Positions 53,305-62,137 of a stretch of DNA of 64,000 nucleotides are shown here, piece after piece. The position numbers were made by a program, and so were the translations under genes. Positions within the stretch are counted from its first letter, which is position 1, and the number at the start of each line of letters is the position of its first letter. The notes beneath the pieces are model-generated. The model did no database searches. It was not told the DNA's origin and saw only the letters and a program-made list of their open reading frames with translations. Origin of the DNA: an uncultured Bacilli bacterium (GTDB lineage Bacteria > Bacillota_I > Bacilli_A > RF39 > UBA660); assembly GCA_944358535.1 (NCBI GenBank), contig CALVRH010000003.1:6252-70251 (forward strand), given 5' to 3'.

Positions 53305-53487
53305 TTAGTTTTTGGATTTTTTATTCGCTTTTTTGTTATTTATTCTAGTGATTTCGTTTATTTTTTCTTGGTAACCTTTTAAGGCAGAAAAGGGAGCGAA
53401 CTGAGCGGAACGATTTTTAAGAGACATTGGTTTTCTTTTCTTTGATACATGATGAGGCATATTTATAATATCATCATAGTTAGGCAT
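53305..53487 (-). CDS. YolD-like small protein accompanying the Y-family polymerase
   Basis: 60 aa. PHHVSKKRKPMSLKNRSAQFAPFSALKGY resembles the accessory proteins encoded next to uvrX/yqjW-type polymerases. It overlaps the polymerase stop by 8 nt. Confidence 0.5.
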   Translation of the reverse strand: MPNYDDIINMPHHVSKKRKPMSLKNRSAQFAPFSALKGYQEKINEITRINNKKANKKSKN

Positions 53488-54967
53488 GATGACCTCCTAT
53501 TTGTTCGTTTCGCTTTTTGGTGGTGGCAGCTTTTTCTAAATCCATAAGTTTTAAAATGGAATTTTTGCCATATTTTTCTTTAATATTTAAAAGGGTTCCT
53601 TGGAGTTTTCTTTCTTTTGCTTCTTCTTTTTTTTCATTTTCTAAAATGTTAGTTTGTTTTTCTGAATCTGAAAATAAATCTAGTTGGTGATATTTTGTTT
53701 TATGAATTTCTAATTTTTCATCTGTTACATCAATGGCGGTTAGGTTAATTCTTTTGATTAATAGTTTGGGCTCAATAATTTTATCATATAGTTTTATTAG
53801 AGCATTCATGATTATTTTAGAAGATGATGTTTTATGGGTTAAGGTTATGGTCCCATGAGCATGTTTAGGAATTTTTCTTCCATAAAAGTCAGTGGTTATT
53901 TCTCCTTCATAATTATTATTTATGTTTTGAATGTCATAGCCAATAGTTAAGGTTAGTTTATCTGTGACAAGGCTTTTGGCGGTAAGGTCAAGGGCAAGTG
54001 AATCAGCCATTTCACAGACTACTAATTTAGTTTCTTTATAATTATATGGACAATCAAGTACTTGACCTGAGGTTATACATCTATTATTTGGAGTATAGGA
54101 TTTTATAGACTCTATTGTACAGGGTTCATATCCCCAAGCGTGGTCGATTAATAGTTCGGCATTTATACCGAATAGTTTATAAAGTAAGTCTTCGTTTTGA
54201 ATGGAGCATCTAGCAATATCTCCCATGGTATAGATGCCATATTTTTCTAATCTTTTGGCGATTCCTTTACCTACCCGCCAAATATCGGTAATTGGTTTAT
54301 GATACCATATTTGTTTTCTATAAGACATTTCATCAAGCTTAGCTATTCTAACTCCATATTTGTTTGGCTTAGTGTGTTTTGCTACAACATCCATTGCAAC
54401 TTTAGCTAGAAATAAATTGGCACCTATGCCAGCGGTGGCAGTAATACCTGTTTGTTTATAAATATCATTAATTATTTTGGTGACAAGTTCTTCTGGGGCA
54501 AGGTTATAATATTTTAAATAATTAGTTATATCGGCAAAAATTTCATCAATTGAATATACGAATATGTCATCACTTGATAAATATTTTAGATATATGCTAT
54601 AGATTTTGGCTGATGTATCTATATAATGAGCCATTCTGGGTTTAGCTATTATGAAAGATAATTCTTTGGTTTTATCTTTTTTTAATTCATCATCATTAGA
54701 GGATTGACCAGTAAATGGTTTATAACTATTTTGTTTTTTTCTTAGTTTATTTATTTCTTTGACTTTTGATATTACTTCAAATAGTCTTGGTCTACCACCT
54801 ACTCCATACTGTTTTAATGATGGGCTTACAGCAAGGCAAATGGTTTTTTCAGTTCTTTCTTCATCGGCAACAACGAGGTTTGTTTTTAAAGGATCTAATC
54901 CTTTTTCTACGCACTCTACTGAAGCATAGAAACTTTTTAAATCGATACATATATAAGTCTTCTCCAT
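53480..54967 (-). CDS. Y-family (translesion) DNA polymerase, UvrX/YqjW-like
   Basis: ICIDLKSFYASVE, YSIDEIFADIT, ATAGIGANLFLAKVA, VGKGIAKRL. Confidence 0.85.
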   Translation of the reverse strand: MEKTYICIDLKSFYASVECVEKGLDPLKTNLVVADEERTEKTICLAVSPSLKQYGVGGRPRLFEVISKVKEINKLRKKQNSYKPFTGQSSNDDELKKDKTKELSFIIAKPRMAHYIDTSAKIYSIYLKYLSSDDIFVYSIDEIFADITNYLKYYNLAPEELVTKIINDIYKQTGITATAGIGANLFLAKVAMDVVAKHTKPNKYGVRIAKLDEMSYRKQIWYHKPITDIWRVGKGIAKRLEKYGIYTMGDIARCSIQNEDLLYKLFGINAELLIDHAWGYEPCTIESIKSYTPNNRCITSGQVLDCPYNYKETKLVVCEMADSLALDLTAKSLVTDKLTLTIGYDIQNINNNYEGEITTDFYGRKIPKHAHGTITLTHKTSSSKIIMNALIKLYDKIIEPKLLIKRINLTAIDVTDEKLEIHKTKYHQLDLFSDSEKQTNILENEKKEEAKERKLQGTLLNIKEKYGKNSILKLMDLEKAATTKKRNEQIGGHHA

Positions 54968-55069: not shown

Positions 55070-55744
55070 TTATATCAAAAATATAAGCCATATTCCTAAA
55101 GCTATAAATATGATGAATAGGATTATACTGGTTTTACTGATGCTTACTTTTTTTAAGTTATGTTTTTCTAATTCCTTTGTTTGTTTAATATATTTTAGAC
55201 CAAATAGTTTGGTTTTACTTAAATCTTTGTTTGTATATAGTCCAAAAGCCATTGGATTATCATATTCTGAGTATTCAAAGTCTTTTAATTTTAATAGATC
55301 CAAAAACATGATTAAGTCAGCTGAACATCCTGATATATTTAAAATGGATAACCAAATTAAGACAGTATTGTTTGTAAGAATTCCTATGATATAAGTAATA
55401 ACACCAATTATGACGAATGGGAATAATAAAGAAATTAAAATATTTCTTTTACTGATATTTTGTTTACATAAACAACATAGTATCCCCTTCTCTAGATGAG
55501 CACCATAGGTAATGTTTTTGAATTTGGCGCCATTAATAACGTAAGCTAGACTGTGCAGTAGTTCGTGGAGAATTAGATATGGAATGATAAGTAAAAATAT
55601 TAATTCAAAATCTTTATCAGTCATAGTAATCTCATTGGAGAAATAGAAAGTTATAAATAGCATAATAATTAAAAATATAACTGATATTATTTGGAGAGTT
55701 ACTCCATTCATTTCATATACATAATATTTCTTTTCTTGATTCAT
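55070..55744 (-). CDS. DUF3267-like membrane metalloprotease candidate
   Basis: Polytopic protein with an HExxH motif in LHELLHSLAY. Confidence 0.55.
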   Translation of the reverse strand: MNQEKKYYVYEMNGVTLQIISVIFLIIMLFITFYFSNEITMTDKDFELIFLLIIPYLILHELLHSLAYVINGAKFKNITYGAHLEKGILCCLCKQNISKRNILISLLFPFVIIGVITYIIGILTNNTVLIWLSILNISGCSADLIMFLDLLKLKDFEYSEYDNPMAFGLYTNKDLSKTKLFGLKYIKQTKELEKHNLKKVSISKTSIILFIIFIALGIWLIFLI

Positions 55745-55760
55745 TTCCAGGCTCCTATAA

Positions 55761-56282
55761 TTAATTTAGTGACTTATAAAGGTTAAGGATTTCTAGCATT
55801 TCTTTAGTGATACCTTTTTTATCACCATATTTTTGTACATTTTCCTTTAGTTCTTCTTCAACATCATTTACAGGAATATATCTTAATTCAAAGTTTCCAT
55901 CTTTTTCGCTTTCAGTATATTCGGTATTATTTAGGTTTGGTTTTTCATCAGTTTTAAGTTCATAATAATATATTTCCATTTTTCGGTTTTTACCTTTTTC
56001 TGGCCAGTCTTTATAGTAACTTATCATTTTGGCAAAAGGATTAATATTCAAATGATTTAAGACTATTCCTGTTTCTTCTTTTATTTCTCTTTTGATTGTT
56101 TGAACTAAATTTTCGCCTTTTTCAACATGTCCACCTGGAAATTGGTAATCACTATGAGAATAACCTAATAAAATTTCTTTCTTAGAATTGGTTATTAATA
56201 ATTTAACTCTTTTTACTACTTCTGTGACATCTGTTTCTTTTAAATTGCTTTCATTTCTAATAATTTCTTTCATATCAATCAC
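55761..56282 (-). CDS. NUDIX hydrolase
   Basis: Complete Nudix box GGHVEKGENLVQTIKREIKEETGI. The track start is GTG, and ATG at 56273 is an alternative. Confidence 0.85.
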   Translation of the reverse strand: MIDMKEIIRNESNLKETDVTEVVKRVKLLITNSKKEILLGYSHSDYQFPGGHVEKGENLVQTIKREIKEETGIVLNHLNINPFAKMISYYKDWPEKGKNRKMEIYYYELKTDEKPNLNNTEYTESEKDGNFELRYIPVNDVEEELKENVQKYGDKKGITKEMLEILNLYKSLN

Positions 56283-56492: not shown

Positions 56493-56531
56493 TGTGATAT
56501 GATTAATTTGACAATAATTGGAGGTGTAAAG

Positions 56532-56687
56532 ATGATAGAATCCATTGAAGACTCAAGAACAGAATTTAAAGTTAAATTAGTGGATGACTTGGAAGAAACA
56601 GTTATAGCATTTTTAAATAAAGATGGTGGTATCATCTATATTGGCGCTGATAAAAATGGCAAATGGATTGTTATTGATAGAAAATAA
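56532..56687 (+). pseudogene. 5' fragment of an AlbA_2/Schlafen-type (divergent AAA / putative DNA-binding) gene, truncated after about 50 codons
   Basis: GGAGGTG RBS. MIESIEDSRTEFKVKLVDDLEETVIAFLNKDGGIIYIGADKNGK matches the E..EFK...AF.N..GG.I.IG N-terminus of AlbA_2 proteins, which are normally 400-500 aa. The frame stops at 56685-56687. Confidence 0.55.
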
Positions 56688-57032
56688 TTAGAACAGAAAA
56701 ATTGTAGCAATAAAATGCTATGATTTTTATTTTTAGAATGATTTTTATGTACTCCAAAGTTGCATAGAAGTTCGAAAAAAAATCAAATCCATTTCTGAAT
56801 TTGATATTTATCATAATGCTCAAAAGTTTGAGCAGATTCTTCTTTGGAGCGATAGTTGAGTGAGTACACAACTTTTTTCTCACATGAGGATGATATATAA
56901 ATCACCCATCTATATTTATTATATCATATATTTATTTTTTTTAAAGAATATTGTTAAATAATATCAAAAAATATGCTATAATTATTGTAGTTGAATATCA
57001 TTATGATATTCTTTTTTCTTTTGAGGTGTTTT

Positions 57033-57443
57033 ATGGAGAAAAAAATAAGTCATTTAAATATGATACAAAGTATTATTACTAGGATGGGAAATAACTCTTT
57101 CGCTTTAAAAGGATGGGCAGTTGGAATTATGATTGCTGTTTATGCATTTGCTGGGAACTCAAACGTTAAAGCTGTAATTGTAACTTTAATGCCATTAATT
57201 GTATTTTGGTTCATAGATACATATTATTTAATGCTAGAAAGAAAATTTAGATGTTTATATGATGATGTTAGAATAAAAGATGAGAAAGATATAGATTTTA
57301 GTATGAATCCGAATGATGTTAAGATAAACCTTGATGAAGTTAAAAAATATGGATTCTTTAGTATTTTCTTTTCAAAATCAGTTCTACCATTTTATCTTGT
57401 GTGCATAGCTACAACACTAGTAATATATTTTGTAAAATTTTAA
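57033..57443 (+). CDS. Small three-TM membrane protein (136 aa), first gene of the TIR operon
   Basis: The ATG at 57033 is preceded by GAGGTG. The track's TTG at 56991 is less likely. MEKKISHLNMIQSIITRMGNNSFALKGWAVGIMIAVYAFAG..AVIVTLMPLIVFWFIDTYYLMLERKFRCLYDDV..(charged linker)..VLPFYLVCIATTLVIYFVKF. An extended -10 TGcTATAAT lies at 56974-56982. Confidence 0.6.
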   Translation: MEKKISHLNMIQSIITRMGNNSFALKGWAVGIMIAVYAFAGNSNVKAVIVTLMPLIVFWFIDTYYLMLERKFRCLYDDVRIKDEKDIDFSMNPNDVKINLDEVKKYGFFSIFFSKSVLPFYLVCIATTLVIYFVKF

Positions 57444-57456
57444 AAGGAGGTAACTT

Positions 57457-58080
57457 ATGGGTAAAAAAATATTTGTATCCTATAAATATGCTGATAGTGA
57501 TGTACGTAAAATTACTAATGATTATTTTCATACAGATACTGTTAGAGATTATGTTAATAAACTAGAAGAAAAAATTGGTAAGTCTGACATTTACAAAGGA
57601 GAAAGTGATGATAATGATTTATCACAATTAACCGATGACTCAATTTGGAACCAATTAAAACAAAAAATATACGATAGTTCAATAACGATAGTATTAATCT
57701 CTCCAAATATGAAAACTTTATGGAAATCTGAAAAAGATCAATGGATTCCACAAGAAATATCATACTCTTTAAAAGAAATAACTCATAATGGTACAAGAAA
57801 AAGTAAATCAAATGCATTAATATATGTTATATTACCTGACAAATATAATAGTTATGATTATTTTATACAAAAAAGTTATTGGGATACAGAAACATATCGA
57901 TATGATAAAATATTTAGTATCATGAAAAATAATCTAAATAATTATAAATATAGCAGTGATATTAGTTATGCAGTAATTGTTAAATGGGATACATTTTTAA
58001 ATAACTATAGTACCTACATAAATTCTGCTATAAAGAAACAAGAAAATATAGATAGTTACAATATCTGCAAACAAATATAG
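57457..58080 (+). CDS. ThsB-like (DUF1863-type) TIR-like domain protein
   Basis: AAGGAGG RBS, 13 nt after the upstream stop. KKIFVSYKYADSD...SSITIVLISPNMKTLWKSEKDQWIPQEISYSL...ALIYVILPDKYN is colinear with the F-S-[FY]-x-Y-x-D, T-x-V-L-I and W-x-x-x-E-I blocks of Thoeris ThsB as I remember them. Confidence 0.7.
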   Translation: MGKKIFVSYKYADSDVRKITNDYFHTDTVRDYVNKLEEKIGKSDIYKGESDDNDLSQLTDDSIWNQLKQKIYDSSITIVLISPNMKTLWKSEKDQWIPQEISYSLKEITHNGTRKSKSNALIYVILPDKYNSYDYFIQKSYWDTETYRYDKIFSIMKNNLNNYKYSSDISYAVIVKWDTFLNNYSTYINSAIKKQENIDSYNICKQI

Positions 58081-58108
58081 AGCATTGTTGAAAATGCTCT
58101 TTTATTTT
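58079..58108. terminator. Bidirectional terminator shared by the TIR operon and the convergent ASCH gene
   Basis: AGAGCATT / AATGCTCT 8-bp stem with a 6-nt loop, followed by TTTATTTT. Confidence 0.65.
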
Positions 58109-58509
58109 AAATCTTTTTCTTCTATATTTAGGTTCCATAATCCTAATTGTCCATTAACTTCTTTATCATAATTTATTTTTTTAATGTTATTTAATTTCCA
58201 TGCATAACCAGTTCTAACTTTATTTCCGTATGCAATATTATTTTCAGATATTATTCTATGATTTAATTGTTCATCTAATTCTAGACAATCTTCTATTTCA
58301 ACAATAGCAATAATTCTTCTAGAAGGAAATTTCAAATTCATATTCTTATATTTTTTCATATCTTCTTTATCTATTCCTGTTCCTGCATGAATTAAAACTT
58401 TTCCTCTGTAATTAGTTTTCCAAGATCTAAATTCATATTTTTTTATTCCTTCTGCAACTAAAGTTGCCCAAGGTTGTCTTAATGTTAATACTTTCAATTT
58501 AATCACCAC
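58102..58509 (-). CDS. ASCH-domain (PUA-like fold) protein
   Basis: VLTLRQPWATLVAEGIKKYEFRSWKTNYRGKVLIHAG is the hallmark ASCH N-terminus. Confidence 0.8.
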   Translation of the reverse strand: MVIKLKVLTLRQPWATLVAEGIKKYEFRSWKTNYRGKVLIHAGTGIDKEDMKKYKNMNLKFPSRRIIAIVEIEDCLELDEQLNHRIISENNIAYGNKVRTGYAWKLNNIKKINYDKEVNGQLGLWNLNIEEKDLK

Positions 58510-58591: not shown

Positions 58592-59704
58592 ATGGTGATA
58601 AATATGAGTAAGATATACAAGACGATAGATTTATTTTCAGGTTTGGGTGGAATAAGAAAAGGTTATGAAATGACAGGTAGATTTAAAAATGTTTTATCTG
58701 CTGATGTAGATAAGTATGCATGTCTTACTTATAAGCATCTATATGGTGAAGATTCATATAATGACGTTACCTCAGAAGAATTTAAAGAAAAAGTTGAAAA
58801 AACAAATTATGATATTCTTTTAGGTGGATTCCCATGTCAAGCATTTTCTATAGCAGGTCTTCAAAAAGGTTTTGCTGATGAAACCAGAGGAACATTATTT
58901 TTTGATATTGCAGATATCATTAGAAGAACAAGACCAAAAGCATTTATGTTAGAAAATGTTGAAGGATTGTTAAAACACGATAAAGGAAATACATTCAAAG
59001 TTATTACAAGAGTTTTGGATGAGTTGGATTATAAAATTGTAGGAGTTGATTTTTGTGGCGACAATCCTATTTATAATTCAAAGGATTTAGTTAGAACTAC
59101 AAAAGATTTTGGAATTCCCCAAAAAAGAGCAAGAATATTTATAATGGGATTTAGAAGAGATATTATTCCAGATAATTATATTTTTCCTAGACTACCAGAT
59201 CATTCTGATAATAAGATATATAATAATTTATATGATTTACTTGATGATAATGTTGATCCAAAATATTATTTATCAGAAAAGTTATTAACTACACTTAAAA
59301 ATCATAAAAATAATCATTCTGCAGTAAAGTCTGGTTTTGGTTATATAGTAGTTAACGAAGGAGAAAATCCAGTTTCAAATACAATTATGGCAACTGGTGG
59401 TTCTGGAAAAGAAAGAAATTTAGTAAGACAACATCATAAAGAATATGATAACTTAATAGTTGGTAAAAAGAATCCAATTAATACTGAAGGCATAAGAAAT
59501 ATGACTCCTCGTGAATGGGGAAAACTACAGGGTTTCATCAATTATGCATTTATTGAAAATGGTGTTGATACTTTTTCTTTTCCTGAAGGAATTAGTGATA
59601 CACAACAATACAAATTATTTGGTAATTCAGTATCTATTCCTGTAATACATGAAATGGCAAAATATATGATAGAAAGGTTGGATGAATTTTATGGCGATGA
59701 ATAA
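58592..59704 (+). CDS. DNA (cytosine-5)-methyltransferase
   Basis: All the ordered m5C motifs are present: I DLFSGLGG, IV GFPCQAFS, VI ENVEGL, VIII QKRARIF, IX REWGKLQGF, X GNSVSIPV. The true start may be the ATG at 58605. Confidence 0.95.
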   Translation: MVINMSKIYKTIDLFSGLGGIRKGYEMTGRFKNVLSADVDKYACLTYKHLYGEDSYNDVTSEEFKEKVEKTNYDILLGGFPCQAFSIAGLQKGFADETRGTLFFDIADIIRRTRPKAFMLENVEGLLKHDKGNTFKVITRVLDELDYKIVGVDFCGDNPIYNSKDLVRTTKDFGIPQKRARIFIMGFRRDIIPDNYIFPRLPDHSDNKIYNNLYDLLDDNVDPKYYLSEKLLTTLKNHKNNHSAVKSGFGYIVVNEGENPVSNTIMATGGSGKERNLVRQHHKEYDNLIVGKKNPINTEGIRNMTPREWGKLQGFINYAFIENGVDTFSFPEGISDTQQYKLFGNSVSIPVIHEMAKYMIERLDEFYGDE

Positions 59705-60755
59705 AGGCGAATGGTCAGAATTATATGCAATTTTGCATATGCTATCTGAACCAGACTTAACAATTGTAGATGATAATCTAGAAGAAATAACTAACGAGCT
59801 ATATAGTGTTAAGAATTTATCAGTTAAAGAACAAGAAAACATTATTAAATATGTTCTAGAAAACAATATGGATGTACAAGTATATTTTAATGATGACATC
59901 AAACAACTTATCTCAAAAGAAGAAATATCCTTTAATAAAAAACTTATATTTGATGGAATCATTCATTCTATAAATGGTAATGGTGCTTTTGAAATATCTG
60001 GATCTAATGCAATATTATCTAAAATGACTCCAGATGGTTTATTAAAAGCATCTTCTTATTCAAAAGCTGATTTACAAGCTATAGTTTTAGATAATAGACT
60101 TGGTGAAGAAAAAGAATTAAAGTATAGTATTAAATCAAGTTTAGGTAGTCCTGCAACTATTTTAAATGCTAGTATGCAAACAAACTTTATTTATGAAGTA
60201 AATGGAATATCAAAAAATGATATAGAAAAAATCAATTCAATTAATACAAGAACTAAATTACTTGATAGAATAAAAATGATTAGAAGTTTAAATGGAGATA
60301 TTAATTTTGTAAAAGTTCAAAATGATAATTTTGAGTACAATCTTAAACTTATTGATAGTAATATGCCTAATTATCTTGGAGATGCTTTACTTAATTCATA
60401 TGAAAAAGATACAAAAAATTTAAAGTCATTATTTTTAATGTCTTCAAAATTTGATGATGAAACATTTGCATTAAAAAAATTGGGCGATTTCTTAGAAGGA
60501 ATAAGTTTTGGATTCTTTCCTAGTCAAAAATGGGATGGAATAAATGATGTTAATGGTGGTCTTATAGTTGTTAAAAGAAATGGTTCTGTCGTAATATTAG
60601 ATTTAGTTTATTACAAAAACGAGGTAAGAAAATATTTAATTGATAGAACAAAATTTGATTCACCAAGTACTACTCGATATAAAATGTTAGAATTATTTGA
60701 AAAAGACGGTAAAATATATTTTACTTTAAATCTACAAATTAGATATTCAGAATAA
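59682..60755 (+). CDS. Type II restriction endonuclease, HpaII-like (putative CCGG specificity)
   Basis: It overlaps the methyltransferase stop (an ATG at 59697 sits 5 nt before the TAA). The N-terminus NKGEWSELYAILHMLSEPDL and a length of about 350 aa match my memory of the R.HpaII family. No other motif was verified. Confidence 0.55.
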   Translation: MNFMAMNKGEWSELYAILHMLSEPDLTIVDDNLEEITNELYSVKNLSVKEQENIIKYVLENNMDVQVYFNDDIKQLISKEEISFNKKLIFDGIIHSINGNGAFEISGSNAILSKMTPDGLLKASSYSKADLQAIVLDNRLGEEKELKYSIKSSLGSPATILNASMQTNFIYEVNGISKNDIEKINSINTRTKLLDRIKMIRSLNGDINFVKVQNDNFEYNLKLIDSNMPNYLGDALLNSYEKDTKNLKSLFLMSSKFDDETFALKKLGDFLEGISFGFFPSQKWDGINDVNGGLIVVKRNGSVVILDLVYYKNEVRKYLIDRTKFDSPSTTRYKMLELFEKDGKIYFTLNLQIRYSE

Positions 60756-60769
60756 TAAAAAAAAGATGA

Positions 60770-62137
60770 TTAACGTTCATAATCATCTTTTTCTTTGACT
60801 TTTTCATTGTCCCAACCTGTAATTCTATCAAAAGTTTTTTCACTAATAATTTGATTATCATATAAATCACCAACAACTTCTGCATAGATATCTTCTTTAT
60901 CTTTTCTGTGGAACATTCTTTTTAAGAAATTAATTAGTTTTTCAAATAATTGTTGTAGTTCTTGAAGTTGAAATTTTAAATTAAAATTATCTTTTCTGTA
61001 TTCATCAATTTGTTTTTCTTGTGTTTCTACTTTTTCACTTAAAGAATCTACTCTTAATTGTAATGCATCATTACTTTCTTTTAAGTTTTTAATTCTTCTA
61101 GAATCCTGTCTAGCTTGTTTAGTAATAATATTTAAGTTTGCTGATAATTCTTTTACATTTCTATACTCATCAGTTGTTTTATCAACTTTATTAATATAAT
61201 CTTCTAATTTATTTTTTTGTTCTTTAGAAATGATAAATAAATCATCTCTTAAAGGAACTTTTTTAAGTTTATTTATTTCTTCTTTTATATTATTAGAATT
61301 AGTTTTTAACTCTAATGAATTATTACTTATTGAATCTATTTCTTTTTGATGTTTTTCAATTAGTTCTTTTGTTTCTTGGTAGTTAGTCATATCAGCTACG
61401 TTGATATCTCTATTTCTACCTTTCATTTTTTGTTTTAAAGTTGCATCTAGGTTATATTCTTTGTTGTATTCTTCGATACATAAAGTTCTCATTTTATCTT
61501 GTAATTGCATTAAAGAAGTTCTAGTAAATACATCGGTTTTACCAACTTGTTTACTCATACCAGTTTTACAATTATATTTTATTGGAACACCTACAATATG
61601 CATATGAGGACTTGTTTCATCATAATGAATAATAGCACTACATACTTTAAAGTTTGGCATTAACAATTCTAAATCATCAACTTGTTTTGAATAAACATTA
61701 GTCATTTTATGCTTATAATCTAAATCTTTTGTATCCCAAAATTTCTTATCTCCAAGTTCAATTATAATCTCACAAGCTAAATCACTTTTAGAATTCTCAC
61801 TTACTTTTTTGAAGTAGTCATCGATCTTCCTATCATCTCTAGTTTGTTTATTATTGTATTCTAATCTTGCTTCTTCAAATTCAGTTTTATAAAAATCTTC
61901 TACATCTTTGTAAAGGGAAGAAGTACCTTTAACGATTACAATTTGTTCTTGTTCGTTATCATATTTTCTATAATTATGCTTATCACATTTTGATAATGTT
62001 TTAGCATTTTGTATTCCGTTATTAGTCATTGAAGTAGTTCCACTTATATTATTTTTAGCAGAACTTCTAACACTATTTTTTCTATTCTTATTACTACCTA
62101 AATGCAATGAATATGGAAGTTCACTTATAATAATCAT
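60770..62137 (-). CDS. MobV-family (Mob/Pre) relaxase
   Basis: HxxR (KHNYRK) and HxDExxPHxH (HYDETSPHMHIVGVP) motifs, followed by a long C-terminal coiled coil. Confidence 0.85.
   Translation of the reverse strand: MIIISELPYSLHLGSNKNRKNSVRSSAKNNISGTTSMTNNGIQNAKTLSKCDKHNYRKYDNEQEQIVIVKGTSSLYKDVEDFYKTEFEEARLEYNNKQTRDDRKIDDYFKKVSENSKSDLACEIIIELGDKKFWDTKDLDYKHKMTNVYSKQVDDLELLMPNFKVCSAIIHYDETSPHMHIVGVPIKYNCKTGMSKQVGKTDVFTRTSLMQLQDKMRTLCIEEYNKEYNLDATLKQKMKGRNRDINVADMTNYQETKELIEKHQKEIDSISNNSLELKTNSNNIKEEINKLKKVPLRDDLFIISKEQKNKLEDYINKVDKTTDEYRNVKELSANLNIITKQARQDSRRIKNLKESNDALQLRVDSLSEKVETQEKQIDEYRKDNFNLKFQLQELQQLFEKLINFLKRMFHRKDKEDIYAEVVGDLYDNQIISEKTFDRITGWDNEKVKEKDDYER

Follow-up and report, generated by a model that had tools for sequence, protein, structure and literature searches.

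Thoeris types V-XI were defined in December 2025 by Yirmiya et al. (bioRxiv 10.64898/2025.12.03.692087, hereafter the Thoeris preprint). Type V in this scheme consists of the TIR protein ThsB and of ThsF, a protein with three membrane-spanning helices, and it has been validated in Bacillus thuringiensis DAR 81934 and Bacillus sp. 1NLA3E. According to the Thoeris preprint, the B. thuringiensis system defends Bacillus subtilis against phage, its TIR protein produces 3′cADPR (an isomer of cyclic ADP-ribose, cADPR) upon infection, added 3′cADPR is toxic only in cells with the system, and Tad1, a 3′cADPR sponge, cancels the defence. AlphaFold3 models presented in the same work suggest that ThsF forms a homo-heptameric, channel-like ring with positive pockets between the protomers. 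The ThsF family had already been flagged in PADLOC as PDC-M50, which is among the 145 "phage defence candidates" put forward, untested, by Payne et al. (bioRxiv 10.1101/2024.01.29.577857). Here we discuss a two-gene unit at positions 56974-58108 of a 64,000-nucleotide stretch of DNA from an uncultured Bacilli bacterium (contig CALVRH010000003.1; the window), in which the gene for a three-transmembrane protein (ORF1) is followed, after 13 nt, by a ThsB-type TIR gene (ORF2). With good confidence, we regard the pair as a type V Thoeris anti-phage system, in which a signal made by ThsB would act on a ThsF membrane effector. As such, it is a further instance of a named and already described system and not a new kind.

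The assignment follows from the homology of ORF1 to a validated ThsF, from their common PADLOC model and from the listing of ORF2-type TIR proteins as type V. The B. thuringiensis DAR 81934 locus was found through the exact ThsB sequence in Table S1 of the Thoeris preprint (P0391, locus L011), and the gene that adjoins thsB there (L011:4773-5198) encodes a 141-aa protein, ThsF. ORF1 is 39% identical to this ThsF over 123 aa (BLASTP, E 8e-31), and the two proteins have in common the motifs MIQxxIxRMxxNSFxLKGW, FWxxD, and ExxFRxLYDxVR..DFSM. All four PDC-M50A models of PADLOC match ORF1 (best E 7e-44), and the B. thuringiensis ThsF matches the same model PDC-M50A with E 1.8e-48. On the TIR side, a Table S1 TIR protein of cluster 2742576382 labelled "DUF2270 - Type V" shows 42% identity to ORF2 (E 1e-43), and the TIR proteins of this cluster listed under that label are plainly of the ORF2 type. 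An earlier interpretation of the window from its letters alone, here called the sequence-only reading, could assign the architecture to no named system. That claim is refuted: the architecture is that of type V Thoeris (bioRxiv 10.64898/2025.12.03.692087) and of PADLOC PDC-M50, and since the reading itself had held that a match to a named system would tell against novelty, the pair loses its claim to be new. Literature searches on the names PDC-M50 and 9VYL (the structure entry discussed below) gave nothing useful.

ORF1, hereafter thsF (57033-57443, plus strand), encodes 136 aa with three hydrophobic stretches at about residues 27-41, 43-63, and 116-136. The AlphaFold2 monomer model (pLDDT 95.4) has helices at 2-39, 44-80, and 118-135. 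In this model, helix 2-39 has an amphipathic start and becomes the first transmembrane helix; after a 4-residue turn, helix 44-80 forms the second and runs into the conserved ERKFRxLYDxVR segment, and a loop with short helices after residue 80 leads to the third at 118-135. Hydropathy and model thus agree with the topology in the sequence-only reading (an amphipathic N-terminus, a transmembrane hairpin, a charged linker of about 45 aa and a third transmembrane helix), which had also been right that a protein of 136 aa with three transmembrane helices is too small for a SLOG, Macro or SAVED domain. No significant family was found for ORF1 in Pfam or NCBIfam, and it therefore has what is expected of the type V effector, i.e., three transmembrane helices and no other domain from these two collections. 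The ThsF family is uniform in size (~130-145 aa), with near-invariant positions L8, R17, N21, S22, F23, K26, W28, P54, F58, W59, D62, E69, R73, Y76, and S114. It is also large: in a library clustered at 50% identity, 4007 representatives match at E≤1e-3 and 1881 at E≤1e-10.

ORF2, hereafter thsB (57457-58080, plus strand), encodes 207 aa. It passes the Pfam ThsB_TIR cutoff narrowly (21.8 bits, cutoff 21.2) and matches the PADLOC ThsB model PDLC00428 from end to end (E 1e-62); NCBIfam gave no significant match. The closest structure is PDB 9vyl, 46% identical over the full length (E 5e-52 by sequence), and an exact-sequence look-up identified the 9vyl chain as TIR1/ThsB1 of Cytobacillus (Bacillus) dafuensis, A0A5B8Z670. 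Foldseek likewise places 9vyl ("BdThsB1 with NAD") on top with E 9.8e-23 and a TM-score of 0.85, followed by ThsB 9b7d and SARM1 TIR domains, and 9vyl is the sole match of the ORF2 family profile among PDB sequences. The predicted catalytic Glu, E100 of the WIPQE motif, is invariant in 59 ORF2 homologues (the homologue search gave 3280 matches). E100 aligns with WIPWE of BdThsB1 and is in register with E85 of Bacillus cereus ThsB, the latter in a weak hhalign alignment (E 0.034); the E85Q mutant of BcThsB served as the inactive control in Ofir et al. Taken at the level of sequence and fold, ORF2 is a ThsB-type TIR protein with the predicted catalytic Glu kept, as the sequence-only reading had proposed.

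The organization of the locus is that of one transcription unit. A putative extended -10 element, TGCTATAAT, was read at 56974-56982 (plus strand). For want of a -35 element at 16-18 nt, it was not called by the promoter scan; TTGTTA at 56952-56957 is a candidate -35 element for which the spacer would be 19 nt, and a promoter at this position is plausible. Both genes have a strong ribosome-binding site: that of thsF, GAGGTG (57023-57028, plus strand), lies 4 nt 5′ of the ATG at 57033, and that of thsB, AAGGAGG (57444-57450, plus strand), was read within the 13-nt intergenic gap. Downstream, a terminator-like hairpin with T-runs on both strands spans 58079-58108. It has an 8-bp stem with 3 GC pairs at 58079-58100, followed by a T-run, and the scan that detected it found 3 terminator-like sites versus 0.4 in shuffles. 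On the minus strand, too, the hairpin has the form of a terminator, and it could therefore also serve the convergent ASCH gene described below. These signals stand where the sequence-only reading had put them. With one terminator and a 13-nt gap, thsF and thsB are adjacent and co-transcribed, as in type V, and both ORFs, each with thousands of homologue matches, are real genes. The upstream 190 nt, including the -10 element and the thsF ribosome-binding site, are ~95% identical in an independent contig (L013), where these two elements themselves are unchanged; this conservation reflects a common mobile cassette and not independent selection.

Conservation of the pair was surveyed with a profile from a 20-sequence ThsF alignment, each GTDB species being represented by one genome. 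ThsF relatives were found in at least 496 of the stretches scanned, and 80 loci were kept; they cover Bacillota, Bacteroidota, Pseudomonadota, Patescibacteria, Cyanobacteria, Planctomycetota, Chloroflexota, Poribacteria, and others. A phmmer search with 22 TIR seeds from Table S1 showed that thsF is directly adjoined by a TIR gene in 66 of the 80 loci, on either side (on both sides in 14), so the two genes are conserved neighbours, as the sequence-only reading would have it. Both gene orders, thsF-thsB and thsB-thsF, are present among the 80 genomes, and the best-matching TIR seeds belong to >10 Table S1 groups from several unrelated TIR clades. Partners are exchanged even between close relatives: ThsF proteins 65-74% identical to ORF1 (L015, L016, L018, L020-L023) have as partner another TIR protein, of 163 aa, that is not of the ORF2 type. 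Such swapping of partners among TIR clades is more easily reconciled with a diffusible signal than with a fixed protein complex. In 10 neighbour ORFs from the 14 loci without a detected TIR gene, Pfam revealed no alternative signal-making enzyme; those of the 10 with a Pfam assignment were unrelated genes (Fic, Mob_Pre, oxidoreductases, radical SAM, and VIT1).

A second arrangement bears on the same question. In P0266 (378 aa) and P0284 (362 aa), an N-terminal domain is fused to a C-terminal ThsF module. The N-terminus of P0266 is a SLOG domain (Pfam LD_cluster2, 1.7e-15, with a weak STALD match) and its C-terminus matches PDC-M50A (1.2e-48); the N-terminal sequence of P0284 resembles that of P0266, with no Pfam match. 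These SLOG-ThsF fusions are probably the "4TM SLOG" class of the Thoeris preprint, which gave no defence in Escherichia coli (bioRxiv 10.64898/2025.12.03.692087). That TIR partners are exchanged and that ThsF can be fused to a nucleotide sensor are two indications that ThsF is the effector responding to the signal. Of the two roles that the sequence-only reading had left open for the membrane protein, published experiments on the family back that of an effector driven by a TIR product.

Two further observations concern ThsF neighbourhoods. In L016, L018, and L020-L023, whose ThsF proteins are the nearest relatives beyond the clade of ORF1, a conserved 123-126-aa protein with an XRE-like helix-turn-helix (by eye) is encoded directly upstream of thsF, and together with thsF and the 163-aa TIR gene downstream, this gene may represent a regulated three-gene variant. 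In Candidatus Poribacteria (L059, L074, L075, L081), a conserved 160-185-aa ORF directly upstream of thsF resembles, by eye, a nucleoside 2-deoxyribosyltransferase; phmmer with the Table S1 seeds detected no TIR gene beside thsF in L074 and L075. ThsF relatives are also encoded on 32 IMG/VR viral contigs (L101-L132), often close to contig ends. These contigs, together with the matches of ORF1 to PHROG 19896 and of ORF2 to PHROG 13658, suggest that type V Thoeris also travels on phages or prophages. The cassette DNA itself gave no match to GenBank phages.

How would the pair work? Phage defence by the locus, the identity of the signal, oligomerisation of ThsF and membrane disruption are all carried over here from the literature on related systems. 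In the resulting model, ThsB would sense phage infection and its TIR domain, through E100, would turn NAD+ into a cADPR isomer, most likely 3′cADPR. The signal would bind a ring-shaped ThsF homo-oligomer at positive pockets between protomers on the cytoplasmic side, as modelled for homologues. Binding would open or rearrange the ring and thereby breach the membrane, such that the cell stops or dies before phage progeny are made. Lysates of infected cells with C. dafuensis TIR1, the closest characterised relative of ORF2, activate B. cereus ThsA, which the Thoeris preprint used as a 3′cADPR-specific sensor; because of this, the signal made by ORF2 is probably 3′cADPR. The conservation of the basic residues R17, K26, R73, and R80 in ThsF is compatible with a ring oligomer that has positive pockets between its protomers.

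Several points weigh against this reading. The ThsF oligomer and its ligand pocket are AlphaFold3 models, and Foldseek of the ORF1 model against the PDB gave no match (best E 2.4, to K+ channel helices). R17, K26, R73, and R80 are kept in the SLOG-fused ThsF proteins despite the added sensor; the four residues may therefore have a part in gating or assembly instead of ligand binding, and their role as a ligand pocket is not secure. One of three type V systems tested in the Thoeris preprint, that of Vibrio cholerae, gave no defence in E. coli, and the 1NLA3E system was not intoxicated by added 3′cADPR, indicating that the signal or a second requirement may differ between ThsF clades. In this context, the identity of ORF1 to the validated ThsF is only 39%, and the TIR clade of ORF2 (PDLC00428, cluster 2742576382) differs from both validated type V TIR clades (clusters 2734579397 and 2612357774). 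Moreover, the Thoeris preprint calls ThsF a DUF2270 protein (PF10028), and neither ORF1 nor the validated B. thuringiensis ThsF matches Pfam DUF2270 at E≤10. The latter matches 8xMP alone in Pfam, with E 0.012, and among 125 ThsF family members DUF2270 appears in 13 (best 1.7e-3), DUF3278 in 35 and 8xMP in 16, all below threshold. The family has no Pfam model of its own, and the authors of the preprint themselves describe their effector labels as noisy and based on representatives. The DUF2270 label for ThsF is a loose, representative-level annotation and not a discriminating criterion. As this copy of Pfam-A did not reproduce it and such labels are noisy, membership in ThsF should rest on homology to a validated ThsF or on PDC-M50A.

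With these points in mind, the alternatives can be weighed. The logic of type V could hold while the signal is 2′cADPR, cADPR or an undescribed ADP-ribose derivative, or while ThsF needs a second infection-derived input. The authors of the Thoeris preprint themselves state that 1NLA3E may require a different molecule or a second signal, the ThsF partners include many TIR clades found elsewhere in systems with other signals, and the distance of ORF1 from the 3′cADPR-responsive ThsF noted above leaves room for a change of ligand. Nevertheless, TIR1, at 46% identity to ORF2, yields an activator of B. cereus ThsA, and both type V TIR proteins tested in the preprint produced 3′cADPR, and we consider a different signal or a second input unlikely. 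If the claim is narrowed to the clade pair of ORF2 and its ThsF, i.e., that this pair signals with a molecule other than 3′cADPR or depends on a second infection cue, we regard it as quite unlikely. Were it true, this very compact cassette, already packaged on a mobilizable element, might be a handy system in which to study the reading of a nucleotide signal by a membrane protein of 136 aa that lacks a soluble domain. The locus gives no special handle on ligand sensing by ThsF beyond the existing systems.

The roles of the two proteins could also be reversed, with the TIR protein killing the cell through NAD+ depletion and the membrane protein acting as sensor, anchor or regulator. Many bacterial TIR proteins are NADase effectors, the Thoeris preprint concedes such a role for unverified TIR configurations, and ThsF has no ligand-binding domain recognisable with Pfam or NCBIfam. 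For the validated homologue, however, the add-back and sponge experiments described above (toxicity of 3′cADPR only with the system, loss of defence with the sponge; bioRxiv 10.64898/2025.12.03.692087) argue for a signal that acts through the system. The same direction is indicated by the pairing of nearly identical ThsF proteins with unrelated TIR clades, by the fusions that put the transmembrane module downstream of a nucleotide sensor, and by the action of ORF2's closest relative as a signal producer for ThsA; an effector role for the TIR protein is thus very unlikely. A last alternative is that the pair chiefly serves the mobile element that carries it, by addiction or stabilisation or by exclusion of rival elements, and is no dedicated anti-phage system. 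It is the constant terminal cargo in at least eight insertion contexts while the restriction-modification (R-M) cassette beside it varies. Against this, the same gene pair is present in many phyla and contexts in which this element is lacking, phage protection is seen with homologous systems, and defence cargo on mobile elements is the norm; we consider this possibility remote, and type V Thoeris remains the best explanation of the pair.

The cassette (56845-58121) is the left-end terminal cargo of an ~8-kb integrative mobilizable element with an R-M system. Similarity to L013, L094, L096, L098, L099, and L100, whose left flanks are unrelated, starts at 56844/56845. Since the left flanks all differ and similarity starts at this point, the window holds most of the element, which starts at 56845; the segment 56845-56973 (plus strand) comprises the left end of element and cassette and the operon leader. 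L013, from a Bacilli metagenome-assembled genome, shares solely 56845-58121, i.e., exactly the Thoeris cassette. Next to thsB, an ASCH-domain gene is encoded on the minus strand at 58102-58509 (Pfam ASCH, 8.9e-9); this gene, which does not belong to Thoeris, moves along with the cassette. ASCH follows thsB in L093-L100, whereas L013 has no ASCH gene downstream of thsB and carries an ASCH-like one (38% identity) on the upstream side of thsF. Further to the right, the second defence cargo of the element is an HpaII-type R-M system with a C5 methyltransferase (58592-59704, plus strand; Pfam DNA_methylase, 9e-76) and an endonuclease (59682-60755, plus strand; Pfam RE_HpaII, 3e-72). It is followed by a Mob_Pre relaxase (60770-62137, minus strand; Pfam Mob_Pre) and a large serine recombinase (62394 to beyond 64000, minus strand; Pfam Recombinase). 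The recombinase frame is open to the window end, and truncation or a pseudogene was rejected as an explanation, the frame simply extending past that end; in L094 and L098, the recombinase is complete, with 642 aa.

The element is found in at least eight unrelated chromosomal contexts, in metagenomes, and 340 indexed blocks of the assembly collection contain the exact ORF1 protein. Eight loci (L093-L100) carry thsF-thsB, ASCH and an R-M cassette, followed by the Mob_Pre relaxase in seven and the serine recombinase in six; the L099 copy is degraded and L100 stops at the relaxase. In L093, L095, L096, L097, and L100, the HpaII-type R-M system is replaced by another cassette, composed of two unknown genes and two C5 methyltransferases. 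L095 has the window's left flank together with this other R-M cassette. None of the mobile-element genes is a SIR2-SLOG ThsA gene, each having another Pfam assignment. Collectively, these data bear out the sequence-only reading in its view of the pair as mobile-element cargo adjoining an R-M system and, within the element, in its view that a ThsA-type gene is absent.

Some features of the surroundings may be mentioned. In L093, an insertion sequence (L093:5673-7886, encoding a 605-aa protein with a faint DDE_Tnp_1 match) is inserted just upstream of thsF; it is flanked by window sequence 56842-57011 and by sequence from 56918 onward, so that the -10 element still stands next to thsF. In the window, positions 56499-56687, ~160 nt left of the element boundary, encode a 62-aa N-terminal SLFN_AlbA_2 fragment, which may be a remnant of a disrupted gene. 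L093 has an intact 433-aa AlbA_2 + HATPase_c_4 gene. Further left, at 53305-54967 and 55070-56282, are genes for a Y-family DNA polymerase (IMS) with an overlapping 60-aa ORF, a DUF3267 putative zincin peptidase and a NUDIX hydrolase; these look like normal chromosomal genes with no relation to the Thoeris pair.

The value of the locus is one of annotation: two proteins that are hypothetical in standard tools can be named type V Thoeris. A working detector for ThsF is provided by PADLOC PDC-M50A or by direct homology to a validated ThsF. ThsF is very widespread, its 4007 representatives coming from many phyla. In gut metagenomes, a small mobilizable element spreads the cassette while exchanging its R-M module.

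How does the pair compare with the systems around it? PDC-M50 describes the same family, as ORF1, the B. thuringiensis ThsF and the C-terminus of P0266 all match PDC-M50A; it is a prediction with no experiments behind it, unlike validated type V. Rst_2TM_1TM_TIR is a P2/P4 hotspot system of three genes in which transmembrane proteins are encoded next to a TIR protein. The adjacency of transmembrane and TIR genes is common to both, but Rst_2TM_1TM_TIR has three genes and the window two. In PADLOC at E≤1, the two ORFs match PDC-M50A and ThsB only, the presence of Rst models in this PADLOC copy being unconfirmed. Small membrane effectors of other systems follow the logic proposed for ThsF: in type VII Thoeris and CBASS (SLATT) and in type II (TM-Macro, ThsC), a nucleotide signal leads, through an oligomerising small membrane protein, to a breach of the membrane. 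ThsF differs from these effectors in its three transmembrane helices and its lack of a separate soluble sensor domain, and ORF1 matches no Pfam SLATT or Macro family at E≤10; SLATT was also absent, at E≤0.05, among the 125 ThsF family members. The SLATT and Rst_2TM_1TM_TIR affinities of the pair, both raised in the sequence-only reading, were therefore rejected for want of a profile match in Pfam or PADLOC.

With type I Thoeris, as represented by ThsA, TIR1, and TIR2 of C. dafuensis, the likeness is on the signalling side. ORF2 is a full-length homologue (46%) with the WIPxE motif in common, and it probably makes the same class of signal as TIR1; the difference lies in the effector, a SIR2-SLOG ThsA NADase in type I and a membrane protein in the window. 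The closest resemblance is to type V Thoeris. The gene order is thsF-thsB in the window versus thsB-thsF in B. thuringiensis, and unlike validated type V, the window system belongs to a low-GC gut Firmicute host and its cassette is carried on a mobilizable element. In both, the system is a two-gene operon that encodes a TIR protein and a three-transmembrane effector of ~140 aa.

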